Made by a program: the position numbers and the translations under genes. From a virus (lineage: Duplodnaviria > Caudoviricetes), in IMG/VR virus record IMGVR_UViG_3300031519_000083, positions 1-36,525 of that record: 36,525 nucleotides of DNA; one strand, 5' to 3'. The notes beneath the pieces were generated by a model. It was not told where the DNA came from, did no database searches, and saw only the letters and a list, made by a program, of their open reading frames with translations. Positions 21,436 through 36,525 of the stretch are shown one piece after another (within the stretch, counting starts at the first letter, position 1; every line of letters starts with the position of its first letter).

Positions 21436-22875
21436 TTAGATTCCTTTGAATAATACAAAGTTGTTAGCAGCTTGAGTTACTAAACATCTTTCAGATAGGA
21501 AGTTTACTTCCATTGCATCCAAAGTAGATGTTGTTGCTCCACCAGCAGAACCAGTTAACCAAGATTTCATACGTCTATCATCAGATGCAGACGCTCTATA
21601 TCTTACGTGTAAGAAAGGTCTTCTAATGTTAGTTCCTAAAATTTGATCATATACTGTAGATGTTCCAGCAGGTACTAATACTCCTTCAACAGAAGATATA
21701 CCAGTTGAAGCTCCACGAGTAGATGCGTCATTTAAGTATTTCCAGTCAGTTTTGTAAAAGTCATAAGAACCTCTTCTAAATCCTGAGAATCCTAAGTTCA
21801 AAGCCATTTCTTCTGAATTTTCGAATAAACCAAAAGCAGTACCTCCAGCGAATCCACCAGAAATAGAAGCTAACATATCGTCAAAATCTAAAGACGTTTG
21901 TCTTTGTAAAAATAACATGTTCTCTTCAATTGCTCCTTGTGTGTCTAAGTTCTTTAAGATAGCATCAAATTCGTCTAATCCAGCAGCAGCAGTAAATCCT
22001 ACTTCTACGTTTCCACGAGTTTGGATAGCAGCAAATAAACCTTGTGATCCAGGGTTTGTTGCATTAGTTCCTAATTGGCTGTACTCAGCTTCTACCATAC
22101 TCATTTCTAAATAGTCTTCAAAACGTAATCTTGTTTCAGATTCAGCTTTTAAATACCATAAGTATCCAGATGTTCCGTCTTCAGTAGCAACTTCTACCCA
22201 TCCAATTTGTGACATATCAGAACCAGAAATTGTATACTGATTTCTTAATATAATAGGAGAGTTAGAATATTGTGTGAAAGATGGAGTAACTGATACTCTA
22301 GCTCCTGTAGCAATGTTAGATCCTTTAGCATAGTCAGAACCGTATACAAATACCTTGATACCTGTTCCTAAAGCTACTGCACCAGCAACTAAGTTACCAA
22401 CAAGACCTGCATTGTCATAAGATTGTACAGTAAAGTTACCACCAGCACCAGGTACAGAAGCAGTTACGATAGCTTTAGACTCAGCTCCGTTTGCGGGATT
22501 TAAAAGTACTACGGTATCGTTTACAGATATAACATTTGTATCAGCAGCAGCTACAGCAATAACGTTTGTAGTTGCACCAGCAGCCACAACATTCGCAGCA
22601 ACAGAAACTCCGTTGTAAGAGATGTGTAATCTATTTTGTTCAGACCAAATTACTTGATCAGACGTCATTGGCATTTCAGCGCCAACCATTCTTAAGAAAC
22701 CAGATAACGTCCTGTTTCCATAACGCTCTACTTCTTGTTCATAAATTTCAGGTAAATACTGTTGTGCAAAGTTGTTTGCGCCAGCACCAGCTCCGTTAAA
22801 TTGGAGGTAATTACTCTGTAAAGGTTGTTGTAATTGACTCGGTTGAATTGAACCGAATTGTGGAGTTAAACTCAT
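21436..22875 (-). CDS. Major capsid protein
   Basis: 479 aa, after portal and scaffold; strongly biased codons (GCT/TCT/AAC/GGT). QQYLPEIYE.EVERYGNRT, WSEQNRLH, GF.GFRRGSYDFYK.DWKYLND and LSERCL motifs; followed by a terminator. Confidence 0.9.
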   Translation of the reverse strand: MSLTPQFGSIQPSQLQQPLQSNYLQFNGAGAGANNFAQQYLPEIYEQEVERYGNRTLSGFLRMVGAEMPMTSDQVIWSEQNRLHISYNGVSVAANVVAAGATTNVIAVAAADTNVISVNDTVVLLNPANGAESKAIVTASVPGAGGNFTVQSYDNAGLVGNLVAGAVALGTGIKVFVYGSDYAKGSNIATGARVSVTPSFTQYSNSPIILRNQYTISGSDMSQIGWVEVATEDGTSGYLWYLKAESETRLRFEDYLEMSMVEAEYSQLGTNATNPGSQGLFAAIQTRGNVEVGFTAAAGLDEFDAILKNLDTQGAIEENMLFLQRQTSLDFDDMLASISGGFAGGTAFGLFENSEEMALNLGFSGFRRGSYDFYKTDWKYLNDASTRGASTGISSVEGVLVPAGTSTVYDQILGTNIRRPFLHVRYRASASDDRRMKSWLTGSAGGATTSTLDAMEVNFLSERCLVTQAANNFVLFKGI

Positions 22876-22887
22876 AATAATTGTTTT

Positions 22888-24099
22888 TTAGTTAAATTTA
22901 TTCTTTTTAATACTTAGTTTTGAAGAAGTAGAGTTGCCGTTAACTGCTTTTACTTTCCAGCCATTTACAAACTCTGAACCAGTGGATGTTTTCCTTGATT
23001 CTGTTGTAATGTTTTTAGATTTAGCTACAACCTCTTTAACTTGATCGGCTTTACCCTGTTCGTAAAAGTGTTGAGCTATTGTGTCAGCATTTCTAGCAGC
23101 ATACAAAGCTTTGTGGTAACCTTTTGCATCAGCTATTTCTCCTTCTTTGTTTAGGAACTTCCCAATAAAGTTAGTAATATCTGATTGTTGCTCAGCTACC
23201 GCTGAAGGATTTTTAACACCGTATCTAAATTTCTTTTCTCCTACGTTGAAATCAAAACCTTTGAAATCGTCATTGAAAAGTTTGTTAGTGGCATCTTTAA
23301 AATTCTCCTGTTTGACAGTGTTTACTTTCTGCTCTTCGTTATATCGGCTAAAAAAGTCAGTTGCTTTCTGTTGGTCTTGAGTTACGCCTGGTCTCAACTT
23401 GATCTCATCGTAGTATTTACTCTTAGTTTCCTCTAGAAAGTTTCTAGCTTTATTAACTTCTTCTTTAAACGCAATTTTTTTCTTGCGTATATCTCTTTCC
23501 TCGTCTAAATCTTCATCATATTCATAATCTTCTAAGATTATATCCATGTCTTGAGCATCTAAATAAGGTTTTGTTTTTTTATAATACTCTCTTAATAATT
23601 GAGTTTCATCAACTGTAGAATAGTCAGCGTTTAATCTAACGTAATCCTCAACTGTTCCCCCAGTATCTTCCATGAAGTTTACTAGTTTCTCAACATTTTC
23701 TGGTAGTTTTCTACCTAAGATCTTTTCATCTCTTACGGCCTCTTGAGCTTCTTTAGTTACTTGCTTTATTTCCTCGTCAGTTACTTCTTGTAAAGGCGTG
23801 AGCTTGGTAATAACATCTTCAGCGGACCCTTTGTCTCCTTGTCCCACTTCTTGCAATCCCATTTCGGGTTGTTCTGTGCGTAACACAGGTTTCTCTGCTT
23901 CTTGCTCTTGAATGGCATTTTCTTCAGGTTTTAATGCGTCGTTAGGAATTACTACTTTAGTAACTTCTTCTTTGTTTTCTAACACAGGTTCTTTAATACT
24001 AACCTTTGTTACAGCCGGAGCTTCTTGATTTAACTGTTTAGGTTTAGTGCTTTTTCCTTTTAAAGAAAACTCACCTTCCTGTTTAGTTGCTTCTTCCAT
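22888..24099 (-). CDS. Probable capsid scaffolding protein
   Basis: Acidic disordered N-terminus and helical core; lies between portal and MCP; HFYEQGKAD near the C-terminus. Confidence 0.75.
   Translation of the reverse strand: MEEATKQEGEFSLKGKSTKPKQLNQEAPAVTKVSIKEPVLENKEEVTKVVIPNDALKPEENAIQEQEAEKPVLRTEQPEMGLQEVGQGDKGSAEDVITKLTPLQEVTDEEIKQVTKEAQEAVRDEKILGRKLPENVEKLVNFMEDTGGTVEDYVRLNADYSTVDETQLLREYYKKTKPYLDAQDMDIILEDYEYDEDLDEERDIRKKKIAFKEEVNKARNFLEETKSKYYDEIKLRPGVTQDQQKATDFFSRYNEEQKVNTVKQENFKDATNKLFNDDFKGFDFNVGEKKFRYGVKNPSAVAEQQSDITNFIGKFLNKEGEIADAKGYHKALYAARNADTIAQHFYEQGKADQVKEVVAKSKNITTESRKTSTGSEFVNGWKVKAVNGNSTSSKLSIKKNKFN
23781..23918 (-). CDS. Overprinted 45-aa small basic protein in the +1 frame of the scaffold gene (MPFKSKKQRNLCYAQNNPKWDCKKWDKETKGPLKMLLPSSRLYKK)
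   Basis: Hand-translated ATG to TAA; A-rich context (GAAGAAA-ATG). MPFKSxxQR...NP...W..ET pattern recalled from stand-alone small phage proteins; local GC elevation. Confidence 0.7.
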   Translation of the reverse strand: MPFKSKKQRNLCYAQNNPKWDCKKWDKETKGPLKMLLPSSRLYKK

Positions 24100-24134: not shown

Positions 24135-26546
24135 CTAGAAGTTATCTAGTCCGAAACCTTCGAGGGTATCATTTCCGGCTGACTCAAAATTTGTTGGTAA
24201 TGAATCATTTTGTCTTTGTGATATCAACTCAGATTGTTGAGTTGCTTGTATTTTAGTTCTTTCGTCTTTTCTGTCTTCTATTTCTTTCTCCTTCGATCCT
24301 TCGGTATTAGCTTTTATCTGAGCTAGTTGCATGCTGTAGTTAAACTCTTCAGCCATTAATTGCTTCTTAAGATCAGCTTCTATTTGAAGTCTCTGTATAA
24401 CAAACTGTGACTTTCCTTGCTCAAGCTGCAGGTTACTCTGCGTTAAGGCTTGTTGCTTTTGAACCTCTGACATAGCTGCTTGTTCAGCTTGCTGTGCATT
24501 TGCTTGAGCTTGCGCTTGTATATTTTGTTGAGCTTGCTGCTGCATAGCTTCAGCTTTTGCTTTTCTTTTTACTTTAAGCATTTGATTAGCTAATTTGAAA
24601 TTAGATATTTCTCTAATATCTATAGCGTCTTCTAAATCAATACCTCCATTTTGCAGAGCTATTTGAATATTTTGCTCTAAAGCTTGTTTATCTTCTTCTT
24701 CTGGTTCTAAATCAAGGAATATACCAAATTCATGTAAATTTAATGATTCAACCTGCTGTAAAGTATCTACGTTAAAAGAACTTATAGAATTCATTAAAGC
24801 ATTCTTAGTTAAAGGAAACGCTATCATATCTGCCGCTCTTAAACTAATGTTCTCTGCTGTTTTTGTAGTTATATACATTAATGATTGTAAGATATGTTTA
24901 GTAGCTACATTAGAATTAGCTGCTGCTAATTTTTGTAAACCTACAAGAGAGTCTTTAGCTGGTTGACTACCATCTCTAGCTTCGTTTAATCCAGTTACAT
25001 CCCTAATCATTTGAAGATAATACTGGTAAGTAGTTATAAGCGCTTGTATTTTACTTATACCAGAAGAACTTTGTAATTCTTGGATTGGTATCTTAGCTCT
25101 ATTTGGATCGCCATCTTGAGTTAAAGATCTACCAACTATACTACCAGTTTGGAAGTACATGTTTAAAGCTTCTTGAGCGTTGTAATTTGTACCGTTACCT
25201 AGATCAACTTCAGCCAAACCATCTACATCCACAAATACACCATCAGGAACTAACTTCTGTAGTACTTGTTGTATCTTTAGGTGCGTTATTTGAATCATGT
25301 CTGCAAAACTTATAGTTTTACTAACTATGGATTCTATACGACCTTGATACATTCTAGGCGCAGATATACTATAATTCATAGCAACTTTTGTTTGGTCGCT
25401 GTATGGTCTTGTCATGTTTTCAGCCAACTCCCATTTAAGCATTTGATCGTGTCCCAGTATCTTAGCTCCGCTATATAAGACCTCTATTGATCTACTTACT
25501 GTATTAAAGTTGTCGTTTTCTGGCGGATTATAAGTATCTGGTTTTTGAAGAGACTTTTCTAAACCTTGCTCTGTTTGCTTAATCTTCCAAACTTGATCTG
25601 AATACGTTTTGTATTCAAAATAAAGAACTTGAACATTGTTATTGTCATTATCTTGACCTCTAGGTGTTCTAGTATAATTTATATCTCCAGGGTATTTTTG
25701 TATTTTTTCTAATTCACTGTCAGTTAAATAAGGAAATTCTTTCTTTAACTCTTGTAAACTTATGCTTTTAACTTCACCTACATAATATATGTCCTCAAAA
25801 TTAGGATCTTCTGTATAAGAATATATAATATCAACTGGATCTACATAGTCTACAGTAATTCCATTAGCTAAATTAAAACCAGTTTTACTACAAGCAATAC
25901 CTAAAACAGTTAAATCGTACGCTATTCTTTTCTTTGTTTGTTCGTACTTGTTAAAGCTAAAAACGTTTTCAATTAACTCTTCTTCAGCTATTTCTATAGC
26001 TTGTTTGTAATTCAACTGCATATGAAGATCAAGCTCTTCTTTGTCTTTAGGTAAATCTCCTGAAGGTATCGTAGTTCTTCTTAAATCAATACCAAGCTCT
26101 GCATTTGTTTCAGCTATTAATTTTGCTGCAAAAGCATCTTCAGCTATAGCGGTAGCGTGGTCTGTCCTTTGTTTAACAGCGTAAGGATCTGAAGCATAAG
26201 ATCTTATTTTATAACCTTTGTCAGTCATACCATTTACAACGATATCAACAAACTTAGATAAAACAGCAATTGGCTTCCAATCTAAATTAAGATAAGACAA
26301 ATCACCATTTATAGATAACTCGTCTTTATATTTTCTAACTGATTGTTCTCCTCTAGCGTACAGTCTTAAATTATGGAAGTATTGCCAATTACTAGCAAAT
26401 CGACCTCCAGAGGCTCCTCCTGTATCTCCTCTAAACCATTCGTTCTCTATTGCTCTTCCTACAGCGTGACCGTATTCGTAGCTTTGTTTCTCTTCATCAG
26501 AAACTACCTGGCTTGGAAAAGTGCTATTTGAATTTGTATAAATCAT
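24135..26546 (-). CDS. Portal protein
   Basis: 803 aa directly after terL. LRLYARGEQ, YLNLDWKP, MIRDVTGLNEARDG motifs; Q/A-rich C-terminal barrel helix as in P22/crAss-like portals. Confidence 0.9.
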   Translation of the reverse strand: MIYTNSNSTFPSQVVSDEEKQSYEYGHAVGRAIENEWFRGDTGGASGGRFASNWQYFHNLRLYARGEQSVRKYKDELSINGDLSYLNLDWKPIAVLSKFVDIVVNGMTDKGYKIRSYASDPYAVKQRTDHATAIAEDAFAAKLIAETNAELGIDLRRTTIPSGDLPKDKEELDLHMQLNYKQAIEIAEEELIENVFSFNKYEQTKKRIAYDLTVLGIACSKTGFNLANGITVDYVDPVDIIYSYTEDPNFEDIYYVGEVKSISLQELKKEFPYLTDSELEKIQKYPGDINYTRTPRGQDNDNNNVQVLYFEYKTYSDQVWKIKQTEQGLEKSLQKPDTYNPPENDNFNTVSRSIEVLYSGAKILGHDQMLKWELAENMTRPYSDQTKVAMNYSISAPRMYQGRIESIVSKTISFADMIQITHLKIQQVLQKLVPDGVFVDVDGLAEVDLGNGTNYNAQEALNMYFQTGSIVGRSLTQDGDPNRAKIPIQELQSSSGISKIQALITTYQYYLQMIRDVTGLNEARDGSQPAKDSLVGLQKLAAANSNVATKHILQSLMYITTKTAENISLRAADMIAFPLTKNALMNSISSFNVDTLQQVESLNLHEFGIFLDLEPEEEDKQALEQNIQIALQNGGIDLEDAIDIREISNFKLANQMLKVKRKAKAEAMQQQAQQNIQAQAQANAQQAEQAAMSEVQKQQALTQSNLQLEQGKSQFVIQRLQIEADLKKQLMAEEFNYSMQLAQIKANTEGSKEKEIEDRKDERTKIQATQQSELISQRQNDSLPTNFESAGNDTLEGFGLDNF

Positions 26547-28757
26547 TTATCTTATTATTTTTGAGAACTCTCCTTTGTTATCGTATTTTTTAAACCCTAA
26601 TGGTGTAATTGTTTTAACTTGCTTAAAAACCGGAGTGTACCTATTCTTGTTACAAGCCATTAAAGCCAACCCAGAACTTATGGAAGCATCATGACTAGTC
26701 CTATTATTTATATTAAACTTAGCCCAGTCTTCTAACGTTCTTTGGAAGTACATGCTGCCGTACCCTTCTTGTGTTTTACCAACGTAGGAATTTATGTATG
26801 TTTCTATTGCGGAAGCGTGAGCTTGCTTTATATCTTCACTAGAATTTGGTATTCCTCCTATTTCTTTTTCTGTTACCGATAATTTATTCCAAACCTTGTC
26901 AGGTCTATTCATTGAAAAACCTCTATAACCTCTTCTTTTAAAATGATAAAGTAATCTAGGTTTGTTGTTTTCGCATAATATTGGCATGCCATAAAACACA
27001 CAAGCCATTAGCACATCTTCAAAAAATATCTCAGCAGTTTGAGGTCTAGCTATATACTCTAAAAAAAAATGATTAGGCGGAACATCTTCCATGCTAAATT
27101 TAGTTAAACCGGCTAAAGCTCCATTAGAGCCTCTCTTGTCAACTGTACCTGATATATCATAACTGTCACAACCAAATGCTCCACAGTGTTCATTACCTGG
27201 ATATTTAATTCCATTCTTTACTATCACTCGATTTTGTAGATTAACAGGTGGAACCCAAGATATTTTAAACCTACCATCTTTATTTGGTATAAATATAACT
27301 CTTGAATCTAGCCTACCGTCATGCCATTGGAAAGTACCTGTAGTAACCACCGATGTGTTTTTTAAGTCAACATTATAATCTATTTGTTCGTATATTTTCG
27401 CCAGGTTAAATAAAGACTCTTTAGCTTCGTCTCTGAATGCATGCTCTTCAGTTCTTGGAAATTGTCTATAAAATTCATTTAACCCGTCTTGATCATCTTT
27501 TAATCCTTCTACTTCATTCTTCCAAAACTCTACAACACCTAGTGTTATCTTATCTCCGAATACATCTATAACTTCTTTTTTGGGTGTATCGAATACAGGA
27601 AACCCATAAGAATCAATGTATCCCTCGTAGTTCCATTCCATAGGTATGAACAAAGAATAGAGTCCTGAGCTAGTCTGCCCGTTGCGGTTTCTCTTTGTAA
27701 CGTCTGATCCATGGTATAGTTTTTTAAAGTTTTCACCACCTTTATCTAAAGCATTTGAGGTTGATCCCATCATACACTTTCCAATAATTCTAGAACCTAA
27801 TCTTAACGTTGTTTTGGTAACCCTCCAGTTGTTGAGGATGTTGTTTGGCCTTTCCCACTTACCGCTCTCATCGTGGACGAGTAGTTTGAGTTTCTCTCCA
27901 TCATAGGCATTATCGCCCGTGTTTTTCCAGTCAATCGTGGTATCAAGACCCGTGAGCGTTTCCGTTTGTACTTTTGAATCGAGTCCTCTACGGGTAAGCT
28001 TGGATGCGGGTACACGATAGGCAAGTTCCGTCTTGGGCCTGTCCATTCCGTCCTGAATCGGTTTAAAGAAAAACGGGTAGTTAACACTAATGGGTACAAC
28101 TTTATCTGTGAACATTTTCTTCGCATCGGCTCCAGATTTGGACAAAATCCCAAACCGTGAATCGCTTGATATGGTTGCCATGTTAACAGCCTCCCCTGAC
28201 GCCATGAATGAAAATCCTGAACGTCTGTTCTTGAGATATGACATACCATAACATCTTTTGTCTGCTTTGCAAGCTTCCCAGAATAAATAGAATAATCTAT
28301 TGGACTCTCTAAAATCTGGCTTCCCAATATCAATTTTGGACCATTGCAAGTACATGTACTGAGTACCAGTAATATAAGTAGGCTTGTCTTTGTTAAAAAA
28401 CCAATAACCTTTTTCACGCCTTTGAAATTCTTCTTCAATATAGTCATACCATTTTTCTTTAAATTGTTCAGAGTAATTCTTCCAATCAAAAACAGTTTTA
28501 ATATTTTTTAATTCTTTAGGATACTCAGCGGCTTCCCATTTGTTACCTTCACTCTTAACTACGTCAGTAGCTTTTGGTAAAGCTATTATTAGATTTTGTA
28601 TTTCATAAATATCTCCTATCTCCCCGGTTTTACTAATAACCACCATATCATGATCTTCATCATAACCGTATTTCCACTTCTTAAACTTATTGTTTCTATT
28701 TAAGATCTTGGTTTTAACGTGGTTAGGTAAAATTTTGTATAATGACTGCTTGTACAT
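26547..28757 (-). CDS. terL: Terminase large subunit
   Basis: YLKNRRSGFS (Walker A variant), LLVHDESGKW (Walker B), MGSTSN coupling motif; nuclease GCDSYD and C-terminal HDASISSGLA. Confidence 0.93.
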   Translation of the reverse strand: MYKQSLYKILPNHVKTKILNRNNKFKKWKYGYDEDHDMVVISKTGEIGDIYEIQNLIIALPKATDVVKSEGNKWEAAEYPKELKNIKTVFDWKNYSEQFKEKWYDYIEEEFQRREKGYWFFNKDKPTYITGTQYMYLQWSKIDIGKPDFRESNRLFYLFWEACKADKRCYGMSYLKNRRSGFSFMASGEAVNMATISSDSRFGILSKSGADAKKMFTDKVVPISVNYPFFFKPIQDGMDRPKTELAYRVPASKLTRRGLDSKVQTETLTGLDTTIDWKNTGDNAYDGEKLKLLVHDESGKWERPNNILNNWRVTKTTLRLGSRIIGKCMMGSTSNALDKGGENFKKLYHGSDVTKRNRNGQTSSGLYSLFIPMEWNYEGYIDSYGFPVFDTPKKEVIDVFGDKITLGVVEFWKNEVEGLKDDQDGLNEFYRQFPRTEEHAFRDEAKESLFNLAKIYEQIDYNVDLKNTSVVTTGTFQWHDGRLDSRVIFIPNKDGRFKISWVPPVNLQNRVIVKNGIKYPGNEHCGAFGCDSYDISGTVDKRGSNGALAGLTKFSMEDVPPNHFFLEYIARPQTAEIFFEDVLMACVFYGMPILCENNKPRLLYHFKRRGYRGFSMNRPDKVWNKLSVTEKEIGGIPNSSEDIKQAHASAIETYINSYVGKTQEGYGSMYFQRTLEDWAKFNINNRTSHDASISSGLALMACNKNRYTPVFKQVKTITPLGFKKYDNKGEFSKIIR
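27803..28417 (-). CDS. Candidate overprinted lipoprotein in the +1 frame of terL (204 aa from GTG)
   Basis: 228-codon open frame in the ORF track. GTG at 28417 gives MKKVIGFLTKTSLLILLVLSTC (Cys22, lipobox-like). Coincides with a GC-rich, atypical-codon stretch of terL. Confidence 0.45.
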   Translation of the reverse strand: MKKVIGFLTKTSLLILLVLSTCTCNGPKLILGSQILESPIDYSIYSGKLAKQTKDVMVCHISRTDVQDFHSWRQGRLLTWQPYQAIHGLGFCPNLEPMRRKCSQIKLYPLVLTTRFSLNRFRTEWTGPRRNLPIVYPHPSLPVEDSIQKYKRKRSRVLIPRLTGKTRAIMPMMERNSNYSSTMRAVSGKGQTTSSTTGGLPKQR

Positions 28758-31091: not shown

Positions 31092-32036
31092 TTAGTAATC
31101 ACTATAATAATGATTATCAAATTGCCCTCTTACTACAACGTTACCATCTTTTCCTCTTTTAAAAGAATTTTTTCTATATTTACTCGGTTCACTCAACCCT
31201 TTTATTTTATTTTCTTGATCCTCTGGTTTAACAAACGCCATAGAGCTAGTACTACTTTTACTGTTTTTTCTAGTAACCCTATTGTTAACAATATAAGTAG
31301 AATCCCTGTTTCTCTGCGTTTTAGCTGCAGCTAAATGTCTTGCATCAAAAGTTTCTGGAGTTCTGTCTTTAAGAATTCCCTTCCAACTTTTTTCATTAAC
31401 TCTGTTATCTGATATTAGATTTCTTTCTGATTCAGAAAGATTCGGGTTTTTTTTAGTGATAAATCCTGGTTTTCCTTTTTTTTCATCTGTTCGTTGCATT
31501 AAAGCAGTTTTAGTAGACATATCTACTAAACCTTTAGGCTTAAGAGGAGTTCCTTTTGAGCCTTCTTTCGTCTTTTTAGCAAAATCCTTTAAATATTGTC
31601 CCCCACTTTTTTCATCCATCCTTCCTGCTGTGTCTAGTATATTTGCGCCAGTTCTAGGATTTCTTATAGTAGCTGTACTCGTTACAAAAGGAAGACTGTT
31701 ACTTCCTCTAAATCCTCCTGATCTTAATTCTTGGGAGTCTAAGCTAGATTTTGCGCCAGCAGTGTTTTTTCTATAACTGCCTTCTAATTTAGACCTATCG
31801 CTGTAAACATTTTTTTGTTGGTAGTTAAGCTCGTCTCCAAGATTTCCAGTTGAGCTTTGATTTTGATAAGCTCTTCTGCTTCCACTCATTTGCTCATCTT
31901 CGTTGTACGCGCTGGCAGGTATGTCCTCGCCAAGGCCGTACGCTCTTGGTTTTGGTGGTTTTTGTAATAAAGCGGAAGGAACTCCTGCGCCTGTTTTTGG
32001 CATTGGACCACGTCCTGCATTTTGTTTGTAAGCCAT
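31092..32036 (-). CDS. Hypothetical basic, low-complexity protein (possible internal head protein)
   Basis: 314 aa; K/S/G/R-rich; MAYKQ N-terminus. Confidence 0.65.
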   Translation of the reverse strand: MAYKQNAGRGPMPKTGAGVPSALLQKPPKPRAYGLGEDIPASAYNEDEQMSGSRRAYQNQSSTGNLGDELNYQQKNVYSDRSKLEGSYRKNTAGAKSSLDSQELRSGGFRGSNSLPFVTSTATIRNPRTGANILDTAGRMDEKSGGQYLKDFAKKTKEGSKGTPLKPKGLVDMSTKTALMQRTDEKKGKPGFITKKNPNLSESERNLISDNRVNEKSWKGILKDRTPETFDARHLAAAKTQRNRDSTYIVNNRVTRKNSKSSTSSMAFVKPEDQENKIKGLSEPSKYRKNSFKRGKDGNVVVRGQFDNHYYSDY

Positions 32037-32041
32037 AATAT

Positions 32042-32416
32042 TTATTTGTTTGTTGTTAAGTCTATATAAAAATGTGATAATTTTTTAACGGTAACGGTTT
32101 TATTTAAGTCACCAGTATATTCACATATCATTGTGTTTGAATCTTTTAAAATGTATTTAATATCAACGTAGTACCCGTTATCTGGATTATGTAGTTTAGT
32201 TGTAAAGGTTTCTCCATTGCTACTTACAATGTATTCTTCTATAAAATCATTTTCAGAAAAGCTAGTGTTAAACACTTTAACTGGTTTAGAGTCATCAGTT
32301 ATGATAGTCATAACATATGAAGATGTTTCACTTACCCAAGAACCTTCCATTTTGTTTATTTGAGCATTTAATAACAATGTCGATATTAATGCTAGTAGTA
32401 ATAGTAATTTTTTCAT
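32042..32416 (-). CDS. Secreted/periplasmic beta-barrel-like protein with Sec signal peptide
   Basis: MKKLLLLLALISTLLLNA|Q signal peptide (Gln at +1, typical of Bacteroidota), then a lipocalin-like GxW start (MEGSW). Confidence 0.7.
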   Translation of the reverse strand: MKKLLLLLALISTLLLNAQINKMEGSWVSETSSYVMTIITDDSKPVKVFNTSFSENDFIEEYIVSSNGETFTTKLHNPDNGYYVDIKYILKDSNTMICEYTGDLNKTVTVKKLSHFYIDLTTNK

Positions 32417-32442
32417 TTAATTAGATTTGATTTGTATACTTG

Positions 32443-32455
32443 TATTATTACGTGT
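32443..32455 (-). promoter_or_regulatory. Candidate phage promoter motif ACACGTAATAATA
   Basis: Copy of AyAnGTAAywwTA overlapping the zincin stop codon, 26 nt upstream of the ATG at 32416. Confidence 0.45.
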
Positions 32456-32798
32456 ATTTCAGCTTATTTGCTTTATAAGCTTCTACTTCCCAAGGCGAGT
32501 TTTTATCCCCGTCATTCATAGCAGATCTTGGATATTTTTTACCTTTCCAATAAACGAATTTATCATCATAATCTAGATCATCTCTATATTTACCCGATTC
32601 ATCTTTTTCAAGTCCCATTTGCTGTAAATGAACTCTTTCGTGTCTAACTACATCTTCTTGCTCTAGTGGACTTAAGTTTTTATCTACTATTATAGAACCA
32701 TTTTTATTAGCTTGACCCATAACACCTTCGTCTGTATCCATTTGGTATATAGGAGTGTTGTCAATAGATAACTTACCCATTTTCATTTTATAAGCCAT
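32448..32798 (-). CDS. Small zincin-like metallopeptidase
   Basis: VVRHERVHLQQ (HExxH) plus SPWEVEAY (third-ligand Glu motif). Confidence 0.8.
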   Translation of the reverse strand: MAYKMKMGKLSIDNTPIYQMDTDEGVMGQANKNGSIIVDKNLSPLEQEDVVRHERVHLQQMGLEKDESGKYRDDLDYDDKFVYWKGKKYPRSAMNDGDKNSPWEVEAYKANKLKYT

Positions 32799-32799
32799 A

Positions 32800-33006
32800 T
32801 TACTTTATAGGTGTTTCTATTACGTATTTAGCTCCAGGAAAAATATAATCGTATCCTGGATACATTGTCTTTGCATACCCGTTATTGTCAACCCCTAAAA
32901 CTTTGAACTCTACTCCTTTCATTGTAATCTTATTTCCCATAACCTTGTTTTGAGAATTATTTACGTCAGGGCTATTTTTTAAGTATCCAGTTTTTGTTGT
33001 CTTCAT
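32800..33006 (-). CDS. Conserved hypothetical phage protein
   Basis: 68 aa; ITMKGV..VLG.D..G....M.PG.DY.FPG..V.E.P pattern recalled from Bacteroidota phages. Confidence 0.7.
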   Translation of the reverse strand: MKTTKTGYLKNSPDVNNSQNKVMGNKITMKGVEFKVLGVDNNGYAKTMYPGYDYIFPGAKYVIETPIK

Positions 33007-33017
33007 AAAGATAATTT

Positions 33018-33054
33018 AAAAATACCACAGAATTTTTAGGCTCTGTGGATATTT
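33018..33054 (-). terminator. Rho-independent terminator
   Basis: Minus strand AAATATCCACAGA-gcctaaaaat-TCTGTGGTATTTTT just after the 33061 stop. Confidence 0.7.
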
Positions 33055-33060
33055 AATTAA

Positions 33061-33429
33061 TTAGGCAGTCCAAGCATTTTGTGTATATGTCACATATGTT
33101 TGAGGCGTAGTTACTACCTGTCTACCAGAGCCAGTTTGTGCTGCTGGAGCTTGTAATACAAGCACAGGCGATCCTACAGTAGATACAATACCTCCTGGAT
33201 TAGCTCCCATAGCTTTGTAGATTGCTTCTACTACAGAGTTATTAGCTACACCCGCTGCTAATGCTACAGAGTGAGTGATAACCCAGTTTGCAGTTGCGCT
33301 AGTGTTTAATTGAATAGTTGTTGCAGTTCCACCTCCGTTAGTTGTTACCGCTGCGATTTGATCAATCGCAATTAATACTGTTGGCTGGTTTGCAGCTGCA
33401 GTACAGTTAAATTTAATAAATTTTGCCAT
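33061..33429 (-). CDS. Probable abundant structural (capsid decoration-like) protein
   Basis: Start reassigned to MAKFIKF (ATG 33429, preceded by AAAA). A/T/V/G-rich, ANPGG motif, followed by its own terminator. Confidence 0.65.
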   Translation of the reverse strand: MAKFIKFNCTAAANQPTVLIAIDQIAAVTTNGGGTATTIQLNTSATANWVITHSVALAAGVANNSVVEAIYKAMGANPGGIVSTVGSPVLVLQAPAAQTGSGRQVVTTPQTYVTYTQNAWTA

Positions 33430-33432
33430 TTT

Positions 33433-33458
33433 TGTTAGTGTTAGTGTTAAGTTAGTGT
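33433..33458. repeat. Short tandem repeat (GTTAGT-like x4)
   Basis: tgttagtgttagtgttaagttagtgt; on the minus strand ACACTAACTTAACACTAACACTAACA, immediately upstream of the ATG at 33429. Confidence 0.7.
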
Positions 33459-33499
33459 GTGGCATTTTGAGTTTTATAACAGATCTCTACTGTTTTTTT

Positions 33500-33775
33500 T
33501 TACATTCCTCCTTTAGAGTGCTTTGACATCCAAGAACCAGATGCTCTAGAAGCTATAGGATTATCATTTAATAAGTTGCTTTTTTCCTGTTGGTTAGACT
33601 CCATGTGTGGTCCTTTGCTTTTTCCATACATGTAAGGCCCTTCCCCCGCTGCTTCTTTTACAGCCTGCTTAGCTTCGTACTTACCGTCTTTTCTTACAGA
33701 TGCACTTGATGATTTAGAATCAGCAATAGCGTTACGAGATTCGTCTTGTGAAATTCTTTTTCTTGATTTGTTCAT
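33500..33775 (-). CDS. Small basic hypothetical protein
   Basis: 91 aa, K/S-rich; duplicated GPxM motif (GPYM, GPHM). Confidence 0.7.
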   Translation of the reverse strand: MNKSRKRISQDESRNAIADSKSSSASVRKDGKYEAKQAVKEAAGEGPYMYGKSKGPHMESNQQEKSNLLNDNPIASRASGSWMSKHSKGGM

Positions 33776-33793
33776 TTTATATTTATTTATTGA

Positions 33794-34075
33794 TTAACAT
33801 TTCCATCTTCTTCTTGCAGCTAATCCTCTCTCACCTTTCCATCCTTTGGACCTAGCGCAAAAAGATTTTCTTCTGCCGGCAGCTTTACTACCTTTTTTAA
33901 CTTTACCTGTTACAGCTGTTTTAAGTTTACTTCCAGGGTTTTGTTTCCTGTACTTTTTAACACCAGCAGATGTCATACCAGCTCCTTCTCCAGTTGTTCG
34001 AAAGTTTCGACCTTTTCCTTTAGTTGTTTTACGAACTCTTAGGAAAGGTGATGAGTCTGGCTGAATATATGGCAT
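33794..34075 (-). CDS. Highly basic small phage protein (DUF6321-like)
   Basis: GAGMT..GV..YR..NPGSKLKTAVT...RRKSFCAR...ARRRWKC signature. Confidence 0.8.
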   Translation of the reverse strand: MPYIQPDSSPFLRVRKTTKGKGRNFRTTGEGAGMTSAGVKKYRKQNPGSKLKTAVTGKVKKGSKAAGRRKSFCARSKGWKGERGLAARRRWKC

Positions 34076-34076
34076 G

Positions 34077-34229
34077 TTAATTTTTTTTCTTTAAATGAAT
34101 CCATTTATGTACTGTATAACCTATAGTTATCAGTAGTAGCGTAATTTTTAATAAACTATCTATGTGTGTCATAGTTATAGCCATAGTACCTATACTGAGT
34201 GTGTATAATTTGATATCCTCAAGGTTCAT
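34077..34229 (-). CDS. Small membrane protein, 50 aa (holin/antiholin-like)
   Basis: Hand-translated MNLEDIKLYTLSIGTMAITMTHIDSLLKITLLLITIGYTVHKWIHLKKKN. TAATG-coupled to the upstream gene; hydrophobic helix plus basic tail. Confidence 0.7.
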   Translation of the reverse strand: MNLEDIKLYTLSIGTMAITMTHIDSLLKITLLLITIGYTVHKWIHLKKKN

Positions 34230-34438
34230 TACATTTGACCTTTAGCTCGTTGAGTAATAGGTAGCTTGTAAGAATCACATCCACAGCTAGCTTTAGATAT
34301 TTCCATACCATAAGTTCCTGAACTAGATCCTTTTCCCATTGGAAAACCTGTTGTATTCAACGGTCCATCCCAAACAGCGTTCTCACCTACTTGCCCTTGT
34401 AATTGTGCTTTGCCAAACATTGCTTTTTTATCTTTCAT
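34229..34438 (-). CDS. Small hypothetical protein
   Basis: Start reassigned to MKDKKAMF (ATG 34438); GQVGENAVWDGPL...FPMGKGSSSG motif. Confidence 0.7.
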   Translation of the reverse strand: MKDKKAMFGKAQLQGQVGENAVWDGPLNTTGFPMGKGSSSGTYGMEISKASCGCDSYKLPITQRAKGQM

Positions 34439-34448
34439 AGTGTATATT

Positions 34449-34688
34449 TTAAAATTGTTCGAAATCTTCTTGTTGCACACCAGGTTCTCCATTGTAATCT
34501 GGATCCATCTTGTAAAGAGGAGCAGGTAGTGATTGACCACCAAAAACACTCTGACCAATTTGCTGTTGAGGTTGAGTTATAAAATTTTGAGGACGTCCGC
34601 CTTGCATGTTAGCTGGCATTTGTTGCTGTGGTTGTTGCTGAGGGTTTGCCATTGGCATACCTGTCATTGGATCTATTTGTTGTGTCAT
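34449..34688 (-). CDS. Small Q/P/M-rich protein
   Basis: Start reassigned to MTQQIDPMTG (ATG 34688, 1 nt after the upstream stop); acidic C-terminus DYNGEPGVQQEDF. Confidence 0.65.
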   Translation of the reverse strand: MTQQIDPMTGMPMANPQQQPQQQMPANMQGGRPQNFITQPQQQIGQSVFGGQSLPAPLYKMDPDYNGEPGVQQEDFEQF

Positions 34689-34689
34689 A

Positions 34690-35136
34690 TTATCTACTTT
34701 TATCTTTGTTAACATTATCTATAGCCACTGTCAATACTTTATCAGTATATGAATTACCAGCTATAATTTTATTGAATCTTTTAGTTGTTGGTATATCTTC
34801 TTGTCCAAGCATAATTCTATACATCCTAGCTATAAGTTGTTTACACTTAAAACTTACTTTGTATATATTATATTTCTGAGTAGTTCTGTTTCTATTACGC
34901 CACACAACTATCCAGCCTTCTTGCAATAATCTATTCCATCTTCTGTTGTCCCAACTATAAGAATAACTACCCATTTTGAAATCTTGTTTTGTGAAAAACT
35001 CCATACAATCAAAGTAGATTAACAATTCTAAATCAGCATCATTAAGATCGTTGTTCTTACAAGCCCATCTTCTTATTATTCTGTAGTGCTTTAGCAGGTT
35101 TAAATCTTTTATATCCCTTGCATCTAGCTTTCTCAT
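34690..35136 (-). CDS. Hypothetical protein, possible winged-helix DNA-binding protein
   Basis: ATGA overlap with groES. LNDADLELLIYF...RLLQEGWIV...IYKVSFKCKQLI resembles MarR-type wHTH spacing. Confidence 0.6.
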   Translation of the reverse strand: MRKLDARDIKDLNLLKHYRIIRRWACKNNDLNDADLELLIYFDCMEFFTKQDFKMGSYSYSWDNRRWNRLLQEGWIVVWRNRNRTTQKYNIYKVSFKCKQLIARMYRIMLGQEDIPTTKRFNKIIAGNSYTDKVLTVAIDNVNKDKSR

Positions 35137-35399
35137 AGAACAACAACTACATCTTGTAATTTTATAACATGATAAGTTTCTTTATTTACTTCAATCTTAT
35201 GTCCCGCATGCCTATCAAAAAATATTTTACCATTATCCTCTAAGCCAGTTGCAGCAGCTTCATCACCTAGTGAAACTATAGTAGCTTCAGTGTATCTAAT
35301 ATCTTCTCTTTGAGTTTCTGCAAGTAAGAGACCACCTTTTGTAATGGTAGTCCCTTCTTTTAGTTTTCTTATAATTATATTTCTACCTACTGCTTTCAT
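35133..35399 (-). CDS. groES: Co-chaperonin GroES
   Basis: MKAVGRNIII...TTITKGGLLL (mobile loop)...ATIVSLG...IFFDRHAG..I...YHVIKLQDVV. Confidence 0.9.
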   Translation of the reverse strand: MKAVGRNIIIRKLKEGTTITKGGLLLAETQREDIRYTEATIVSLGDEAAATGLEDNGKIFFDRHAGHKIEVNKETYHVIKLQDVVVVL

Positions 35400-36525
35400 C
35401 GATTCTCAAATTATTGATTACACAATCTGTTGATAAAATAGTAGTAGCTACTGAAGCTGCATTTACTAACGCGCTTTTTGTAACAAGTAAGGGATCGATA
35501 ATACCTGATTTAATCATATTAACCATTTTCCCTGTAACCACATTAAGACCTTTTCCTTTACCTTTTGGAAATTCATAGTTGTTTATACCAGCGTTTTCTA
35601 ATATTGTTTTAAAAGGCGCTCTAACGGCTTCTAGCAATAATGTCTCACCCTCTGATTTAGCAACTATTTTTTCCGATGCATTTAATAAAGCAATTCCTCC
35701 ACCAGGTACAATACCTTCTTTGATTGCTGCTTTAGTAGCGCAGATAGCATCTTCAACTCTATCTGTTTTTTCTTTTAATTCAATATCAGAGTTAGCACCA
35801 ACTTTAACGATAGCTATTTTAGCGGCTAGCATTGCTAGTCTTTTCTCTAACTTGATTATTTGATAAGCTTGTAAATTATCTTTAGATAATTCATCTTTAA
35901 TTCCTTTGATTATGTCAAGTATCTCTTCAGATGCTTCACCAACCTGTATTACAGTCTCTTCGTGAGAAGTAACACTTTTTAAGCAAGATCCTAGGTGTTC
36001 TACTTGGATCATATCCATATCGTCTCCTAAGTCTTCATTTATAATTGTAGCACCTGTTAGTAGAGATAAGTCATCTAAGACTTCTTTCTTACTAATTCCA
36101 AATGTAGGTGCATCGATAACGTTTACCTTTATGTTACCCTTCATTTTGTTCATAGCTAGAGCAGATAAAACACCTTGATCTAAATCGCCTATAATAAGCA
36201 AAGGTTTATTGTTTTTTATTACGTACTCTAACACTGATTGTATTTGTCTGATAGTATCTACTGGAGATTCTATTAATAATACTAAAGGGTTTTCAAGTTC
36301 AGCGGTTTTTGACTGAAGGTTTGTAACGAAATGAGAGTTTGTCAGTCCTTTATTATACTGAACACCATCAACGACTTCAACTTCTGTTTTACCATTAGCC
36401 GACGTTTCCATCATTACTACACCTGTGTTATCCACTGCTCTAAAAGCATCTGCTATAATTTTACCAAGTTCAGGATCGTTGTTAGTAGATATTGTAGCTA
36501 TTTGATCTATCATGTTACCTTTCAC
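35383..36525 (-). CDS. groEL: Chaperonin GroEL (5' end outside the window)
   Basis: QIATISTNND..LG..IA.A, VIDAP.FG, IVKVGA.S.IELKEK.DRVEDA..AT.AA..EGIVPGGG, GIIDP..VTKSAL.NAASVA...L.T. Confidence 0.97.
   Translation of the reverse strand: MKGNMIDQIATISTNNDPELGKIIADAFRAVDNTGVVMMETSANGKTEVEVVDGVQYNKGLTNSHFVTNLQSKTAELENPLVLLIESPVDTIRQIQSVLEYVIKNNKPLLIIGDLDQGVLSALAMNKMKGNIKVNVIDAPTFGISKKEVLDDLSLLTGATIINEDLGDDMDMIQVEHLGSCLKSVTSHEETVIQVGEASEEILDIIKGIKDELSKDNLQAYQIIKLEKRLAMLAAKIAIVKVGANSDIELKEKTDRVEDAICATKAAIKEGIVPGGGIALLNASEKIVAKSEGETLLLEAVRAPFKTILENAGINNYEFPKGKGKGLNVVTGKMVNMIKSGIIDPLLVTKSALVNAASVATTILSTDCVINNLRIDESSR

Follow-up and report, generated by a model that had tools for sequence, protein, structure and literature searches.

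The locus and its nested reading frame

The window, i.e., the whole stretch of 36,525 nucleotides analysed here, is a linear 36.5 kb record of a marine phage and is about 57% complete. Its minus strand carries, in this order, genes for a terminase, a portal protein, a 403-aa acidic protein and a capsid-like protein. The portal gene (24135..26546, minus; phrog_6547, E 3e-148) lies directly upstream of the gene for the acidic protein (22888..24099, minus), and directly downstream is a virion structural gene (21436..22875, minus; phrog_13704, E 6e-92) which likely encodes the major capsid protein. The 403-aa protein (pI 5.1) is made of an acidic, variable N-terminal linker (pI 4.3) and a conserved, mostly helical core. 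Cultured Flavobacterium elemo phages display the same gene order, and the counterpart of the 403-aa gene is annotated there as 'structural protein'. Judged by its position between the portal and major capsid genes and by its acidic, helical make-up, this gene likely encodes the head scaffold and is termed the scaffold gene below. Searches of PHROG, Pfam and PDB returned no match to any known scaffold family, and the sole Atlas lead was PF09306 at 0.80.

The linker houses a second gene of 45 codons (23781..23918, minus), which runs from ATG to TAA in the +1 frame of host codons 61-106 and belongs to what we call the MPFKSxxQ family. A preliminary description had proposed a complete 45-codon ORF at this place, and the letters from 23918 down to 23781 do read MPFKSKKQRN...RLYKK* exactly, on the minus strand; the plus strand is closed there. 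Start and stop both lie wholly within the host gene, whose own frame stays open. The peptide contains 13 K+R and 3 D+E (pI 10.1) and two cysteines, C12 and C22. Its DNA is, as had been noted, GC-richer than the surroundings: the 45.7% measured here compare with 34.5% in the window as a whole and rank at the 98th percentile among segments of 138 nt. When the host segment was recoded synonymously in 20,000 trials, an ATG followed by 45 open codons arose in 0.5% of them and an MPF start with an open frame in none. The nested ORF is more than a product of chance.

The likely initiation region (23919..23933, minus) has A at -3, -6 and -11 to -14, and an in-frame TAA (23933-23931) shuts the +1 frame four codons 5' of the nested ATG. 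The A-rich start context noticed at the outset was confirmed, as all five of positions -3, -6, -11, -12 and -13 hold A, a score reached by 4 of 32 gene starts in the window. Across 111 distinct nested copies (cassettes), A occupies positions -13/-12/-11/-6/-3 in 95/86/91/87/80%, compared with 28/61/36/41/37% for 747 other +1 ATGs. As far as its letters tell, the nested start bears the A-rich initiation signature of the Bacteroidetes; according to one study, the same A positions promote initiation in Flavobacterium johnsoniae (PMC6847099).

Other genes of the window deserve mention. Two clusters of small, mostly basic genes (177-968 and 31092-34715, minus) include phrog_14910 (311-586), phrog_27331 (580-807) and DUF6321 (33794-34075), all on the minus strand. 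The nested gene had been likened to such genes, but the likeness is weak: 3/12 start with M[AP]Y and 8/12 hold the word xP[LF], but none matches the MPFKSxxQ family profile, which found no other match in the rest of the window. Only 34 of 98 distinct scaffold-nested peptides hold xP[LF]x[MLVIK]. The xP[LF] word of the 8/12 small genes may be a shared processing or targeting motif. The gene for the large terminase subunit may enclose a second nested gene, a +1-frame candidate of 214 aa (27803-28447, minus) in a run that is open from about 28507. The candidate starts MTILKK...LLILLVLSTCTC, which we take to resemble a lipoprotein signal. That +1 frame is open for at least 150 codons in 58 of 80 relatives (56 of 77 distinct ones, window included; 3/2000 in the null), and host GC3 is 0.47 where it is open vs 0.22 where it is closed, with substitutions still falling at host position 3. 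The candidate, for which Pfam gave no match, is possibly an overprinted spanin-like lipoprotein. GroES- and GroEL-like genes (35133-36513, minus) were identified by eye from their translations.

Conservation and selection in the two frames

The relatives considered were the best 80 of 592 confirmed scaffold-like genes from IMG/VR, a set that was not dereplicated. An MP[FLI]..Q ORF is present in the +1 frame of 55 of these best 80, always at host codon 54-61, and the ATGCC with an open +1 frame is conserved, as had been expected of scaffold homologues. It is absent from the other 25, none of which has an open +1 run of at least 37 codons in the linker; linkers measure 122-139 aa with the nested gene vs 103-114 aa without it. 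A relocated copy was found in 0/25, a figure that carries no weight since these records are 7-59% complete. As the peptides belong to several classes (CYAQNNPKW, MIAMLLSK, YLFA and others), the letters of the host frame vary, but the start, Q8 and the aromatic residue of the second helix are retained. On a tree of 118 scaffold cores, in which carriers are over-represented and from which four anchor-less rows and all truncated rows were left out, the nested gene is found near the root and is missing in several separate clades, presence and absence requiring 9 changes vs 19.6 with shuffled labels. Several lineages can do without the nested gene. In one other contig (L024:2760-2880), the scaffold gene holds a second basic +1 ORF (39 aa, MKTIQLTRQEW...) after the MPFK gene; no such ORF exists in the scaffold gene of the window.

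Selection on the two frames is markedly different. For 64 distinct C-class cassettes, the pN/pS ratio of the nested frame is 0.28 and that of the host frame 1.12; for 33 H-class cassettes, the two values are 0.17 and 1.75. These figures pool non-independent pairs and are therefore descriptive. In the dual-coding core, host codons 61-92 (NAIQEQ...GQGDKG; 23824..23919, minus), substitutions fall at host position 1, which is nested position 3. Host-frame I/V and D/N swaps leave the nested protein unchanged, and all C-class (64/64) and H-class (33/33) cassettes use GCC as the host Ala codon. When six close relatives are compared, the cassette has 38/11/12 substitutions at host positions 1/2/3, whereas all three flanks are dominated by position 3 (24/25/53, 14/2/41 and 29/16/72). 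The suppression of synonymous variation in the host frame that had been predicted is thus present. Inside the cassette, the codons of the host frame are unusual (they score -0.10, compared with 0.46 for those upstream), and stops interrupt the would-be host frame in 73 of 89 non-nested family genes vs none of the nested copies. Four metatranscriptome contig sets, whose contigs carry neither strand nor translation information, cover the region; of four changes listed for them within the ORF, two leave the nested protein as it is and alter the host residue, and two jointly give N10A. It is the nested frame that is under purifying selection; the host frame drifts under one constraint, freedom from stops.

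These data bear directly on the idea of an open frame arising by chance as a by-product of a conserved host motif. A/G-rich acidic linkers do yield Lys-rich +1 frames, these genes contain further +1 ORFs of 20-50 codons, and the last ~12 nested codons, variable in length, coincide with the host motif QE[IV]T[DE]EE. Against it stand the frame-specific selection, the rare host codons that never vary, the signature at the start and the homology to free genes, and for the first ~30 codons the selection and the positions of the substitutions refute it, leaving this explanation a negligible probability overall.

The +1 frame could also be reached by programmed frameshifting or slippage in an A-rich run, which would yield a short fusion of the scaffold N-terminus to the peptide and no separate protein. 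Scaffold/peptide chimeras do exist in the databases (P0008, P0013, P0014, P0017, P0018, P0019, P0043, P0046, P0050, P0054, P0087, P0092 and P0093), but their joins vary and go in both directions, as would be expected of gene-caller or indel errors. The ATG-Pro start is invariant and corresponds to residue 1 of the free genes, the initiation signature is present together with the in-frame stop four codons upstream, and no indel in the ORF is among the changes listed for the four RNA contig sets, whose contigs drop rare variants. We regard frameshifting as very improbable.

The MPFKSxxQ family and its host genes

A profile search retrieved 745 representatives of the MPFKSxxQ family at E≤0.001. 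Family members may stand alone, form the N-terminus of a longer protein, or be nested +1 inside a giant virion gene. The preliminary description had expected stand-alone homologues, and they are indeed common. The 80 viral loci of a second alignment comprise 37 free, 36 nested +1, 3 N-terminal, 3 ambiguous and 1 in the +2 frame; for 79 genome loci, these numbers are 42, 27, 3, 3 and 3, with 1 not located. A peptide-based scan of 80 loci, six contigs of which are shared with the scaffold-relative set, gave 75 nested +1 (7 in giant genes), 4 free or N-terminal and 1 cut by the contig end. One free-standing member, gp48 of Streptomyces phage RetrieverFever, is already annotated. The motif stands at residue 1 in 122 of 136 new representatives, including 43 of 46 proteins over 100 aa, and 9 of 42 long members have a Pfam domain, among them two lysozymes, YkuD (L,D-transpeptidase), 2'-5' RNA ligase and ArdA; MPFKSxxQ is a conserved N-terminal module on unrelated proteins. 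With a conserved ATGCC and open +1 frame, suppressed synonymous variation in the host and stand-alone homologues, the nested gene is almost certainly real, as had been proposed.

Links to described families are few. The window peptide (P0001) matched nothing in Pfam, PHROG or PDB. It does not match phrog_1375, to which 7 of 15 relatives match weakly (E 2e-4 to 0.03), and DUF3008 (PF11450), with no Pfam match for P0001, was an Atlas lead only (0.89). The Asteriusvirus virion protein EcMJ_403 (phrog_16759) starts with a look-alike, the link (E about 2) being a lead only. We discarded tblastn matches in Pseudoalteromonas Y3 and Synechococcus S-SZBM1 as weak, chance in-frame matches. Patience gp4, a capsid stabiliser, found no support at the sequence level: the relative in Patience is gp10, and the solved chain of gp4 is not among the matches listed in PDB sequence and structure searches. 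Our literature search, in which subscription journals were thinly covered and the elemo isolation paper was not found, returned no paper on the family; the sole phage occurrence of the string 'MPFKS' among the matches listed is an unrelated internal string, and the searchable text and supplement of PMC11965321 gave no link.

Several members were noticed in passing. Cultured cyanophage P-RSP2 of Prochlorococcus (L167:2501-2620; HQ332139.1 near 7034) encodes an unannotated free-standing member of 40 aa, MPFVSEKQKKYLYA..., and soil Acidobacteriota/Gemmatimonadota assemblies (L301-L330) contain distant MPFKS-starting small genes on large contigs. In long proteins that begin with the MPFKS module (P0103, P0109, P0148, P0150, P0168 and P0211; P0098, P0113, P0117, P0175 and P0189), short words often recur after it: xxGG in one group, KxA in another. 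Seen by eye only, these words could be head-protease sites.

The 63 nested +1 loci are hosted by 15 scaffold genes, 35 long genes and 13 short ones. The 13 short ones, non-scaffold genes of 121-366 codons that mostly are GC-rich or lie at a contig end, are likely chance overlaps and were dropped before clustering. The long hosts, 43 in all, fall into one cluster of 29 that includes elemo gp18, two smaller clusters with 6 and 3 members, and 5 singletons; their sequences are partial, so that remote kinship between clusters is possible. One of them contains an LPD23 polyvalent-protein domain. Of the 14 long hosts that are not part of the elemo-like cluster, 10 have SD-like GGAG/GAGG/AGGA ahead of the nested ATG; none of the 29 in the cluster does. 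The start signal differs by phage lineage, as expected if it tracks the ribosomes of the likely host.

The elemo phages reveal how the host gene can differ between relatives. In elemoF_6-3D, the giant structural gene gp18 contains a 67%-identical copy, nested in +1 near its codon 1220; the scaffold gene contains no nested copy. Records of cultured Flavobacterium elemo phages carrying this 67%-identical copy number 68. The window's own giant gene (2717 aa) has neither a nested copy nor a BLAST link to the giant hosts. A copy-number search of 26 records matched 22, each exactly once, including 5/5 near-complete ones; three known carriers were missed, so the sensitivity of this search is imperfect. 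A scaffold relative is also present in 8 of 16 records with a giant-nested copy, and in 4/4 of the near-complete ones. Six such scaffold relatives could be parsed, one possibly cut at its 5' end, and contain no nested copy; on a midpoint-rooted tree, they fall together with elemo and Panino and are separated from the scaffold-nested clade (support 0.99). The peptide is therefore housed in the scaffold gene in one clade and in the giant gene in its sister clade. The simplest reading is that a single gene switched host gene once in this phage family, in either direction. Given one copy per tested record, in the scaffold or the giant gene according to clade, the small gene is likely the older frame and has swapped its host gene. 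We consider it very probable that the small gene is older than the host stretch.

Known embedded genes provide instructive comparisons. The D gene of phiX174 encodes a scaffolding protein, and Rz1 of lambda is embedded in Rz and works with its host gene. The spanins of the Rz1 type have a lipoprotein signal, a hydrophobic stretch and a lipobox, and their host gene is Rz. An Rz1-type outer-membrane spanin was rejected for the window, where the peptide is devoid of a membrane or lipoprotein signal and the host lies between portal and capsid genes. Like phiX174 E and lambda Rz1, the window gene is a complete small gene in a shifted frame of a larger gene on the same strand, and like E it has a scaffolding gene, here a likely one, as host. 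Unlike E and Rz1, it is likely the older frame, has free-standing homologues and carries the selection, and its kin occupy unrelated host genes in sister lineages. Tailed phages also offer a precedent for translated nested genes missed by annotation: in mycobacteriophage Patience, unannotated, wholly internal out-of-frame ORFs of genes 20 and 91 are expressed (PMC4324244). These are described there as poorly conserved and without close relatives, in contrast to the conserved window gene with its large family.

Gene E, which overlaps D, is classed as de novo in a publication that also gives +1 internal overlaps in disordered regions as the commonest kind of overprinting (PMC8227390). On a de novo reading, the nested frame would have been born within the scaffold linker and would have spread later. 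The phylogenetic evidence is opposite, however: a frame born de novo should have a narrower spread than its host frame and no remote homologues, and this family is free-standing across many phage groups. The atypical host codons of the cassette, and the stops in the would-be host frame of most non-nested genes, likewise argue against such a birth, which we consider a shade less probable even than frameshifting. The original view of a gene overprinted on the scaffold must consequently be turned around, as wide distribution and purifying selection belong to the small frame and the host stretch is derived and tolerated.

The peptide had further been viewed as a dedicated basic partner of the acidic scaffold made from the same DNA. 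Their charges are opposite (pI 10.1 vs 5.1, or 4.3 for the linker), both likely come from the same mRNA, and nesting goes back to the root of the scaffold clade. But the sister-clade scaffold is without the peptide gene, which is held by an unrelated giant gene instead; free-standing copies exist in unrelated phages; the peptide gene was lost several times from the scaffold, whose core is still conserved; and peptide classes interleave on the scaffold tree. A partnership with the scaffold is thus improbable.

Possible roles of the peptide

The reading we lean towards, at a little better than an even chance in all its parts, is that of a conserved nested gene with its own A-rich start, an old gene taken into the linker, whose basic product resides in the head interior. 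The late head mRNA would be read in frame 0 to yield the scaffold, and initiation at the internal ATG would yield the peptide. The host would tolerate the overlap because the shifted reading of a Lys-rich gene is acidic and polar, like the surrounding linker. The N-terminal ~30 residues are predicted to fold as two short helices, with the cysteines paired in the window's class. AlphaFold places helices at 6-14 and 22-30 with moderate confidence (pLDDT 68, pTM 0.38). The two cysteines co-occur (159 peptides with both, 298 with neither and 1 with a single one, of 458), which suggests direct contact, perhaps a disulfide. This N-terminal module may dock on packaged DNA or on the procapsid interior while the lysine tail would aid DNA neutralisation, and the same module could serve as a head-loading tag where fused to enzymes. 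Structure searches returned 0 matches in PDB by Foldseek and 3 in BFVD, none of them with an E below 1, and Z reached at most 2.7 by VIA-align; such weak matches are no sign of a new fold. PQQ-propeller 'Cake/Scone' matches in PDB were rejected as sums of 5-bit repeats, and other PDB sequence searches with the peptide gave nothing usable.

Taken by itself, the assignment as a small basic head-interior protein has about an even chance of being correct. It is favoured by the nested hosts, which where identified are virion genes, and by the virion or packaging genes next to 22 of 34 free or N-terminal loci, a count for which there is no background control and in which several loci are kin; 5 of the remaining loci have non-structural annotated neighbours only and 7 have no annotated neighbours. 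It is also favoured by the N-terminal fusions, which resemble the tagged internal proteins of T4. The peptide would work like IPI-III of T4 with their capsid targeting sequence, being small, lysine-rich, endowed with a shared N-terminal module and encoded among head genes; lysines of the T4 internal proteins contact DNA phosphates (PMC3012670). Unlike in IPI-III, the module here has ~30 residues, is predicted to fold and is often the whole protein. DNA would be its most economical partner, since the module spans phages with unrelated capsids. The phrog_1375 proteins (Barnyard gp9, Patience gp10; PMC4324244) are, like the window peptide, small and basic with F[KR]SxxQ...W, and their genes often lie between terminase, portal and capsid genes, a similar setting; unlike the window gene, they are free-standing and have basic residues added ahead of the motif. 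Patience gp10 figures among the virion proteins (PMC4324244), with 1 spectrum from particles compared with 4 early and 2 late ones from infected cells; this sole proteomic link to the virion is indirect and thin.

Those same spectra fit an alternative in which the nested gene is real but its product acts in the infected cell, for instance late in infection on nucleic acid, ribosomes or a host protein, and is no part of the virion: gp10, a weakly linked relative, is seen more in infected cells than in particles. The family spans phages whose head genes are unrelated, is also present on contigs labelled bacteria or archaea, and some of its free copies adjoin ribonucleotide reductase, ligase or nuclease genes. 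Yet those nested hosts that could be identified are genes of the virion or head, virion or packaging modules contain 22 of the 27 loci that have any annotated neighbour, and the N-terminal fusions include cell-wall enzymes. An infected-cell role is unlikely, though clearly more credible than a partnership with the scaffold.

Our doubtful but broadest proposal, slightly ahead of an infected-cell role, is that MPFKSxxQ is a universal and so far overlooked head-interior module of tailed phages, a portable cassette whose nesting reflects the capture of an old gene. The peptide alone would then be a protamine-like packing protein and, when fused, a loading tag for enzyme cargo. The cassette would have lodged repeatedly in the +1 frame of floppy linkers in virion genes that are not related to one another (the scaffold and several giant proteins), its start signal being re-tuned to the ribosomes of each host, and nesting by capture would be the reverse of overprinting.

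Embedded genes are known; what sets this case apart is that the nested gene is likely an old one that moved between hosts. The usual story of overlapping genes is reversed, as the small frame is old and protected while a large essential gene reads through it as a linker. A recurring 'DAIQEQ...VGLQEV' in scaffold and giant proteins is accordingly the shadow of another gene and not a host motif, and a large family is overlooked by annotation whenever it is nested. As 68 records of cultured elemo phages carry a copy, the nested gene is directly testable, and its different host genes in sister clades constitute a natural series for how overlaps arise.
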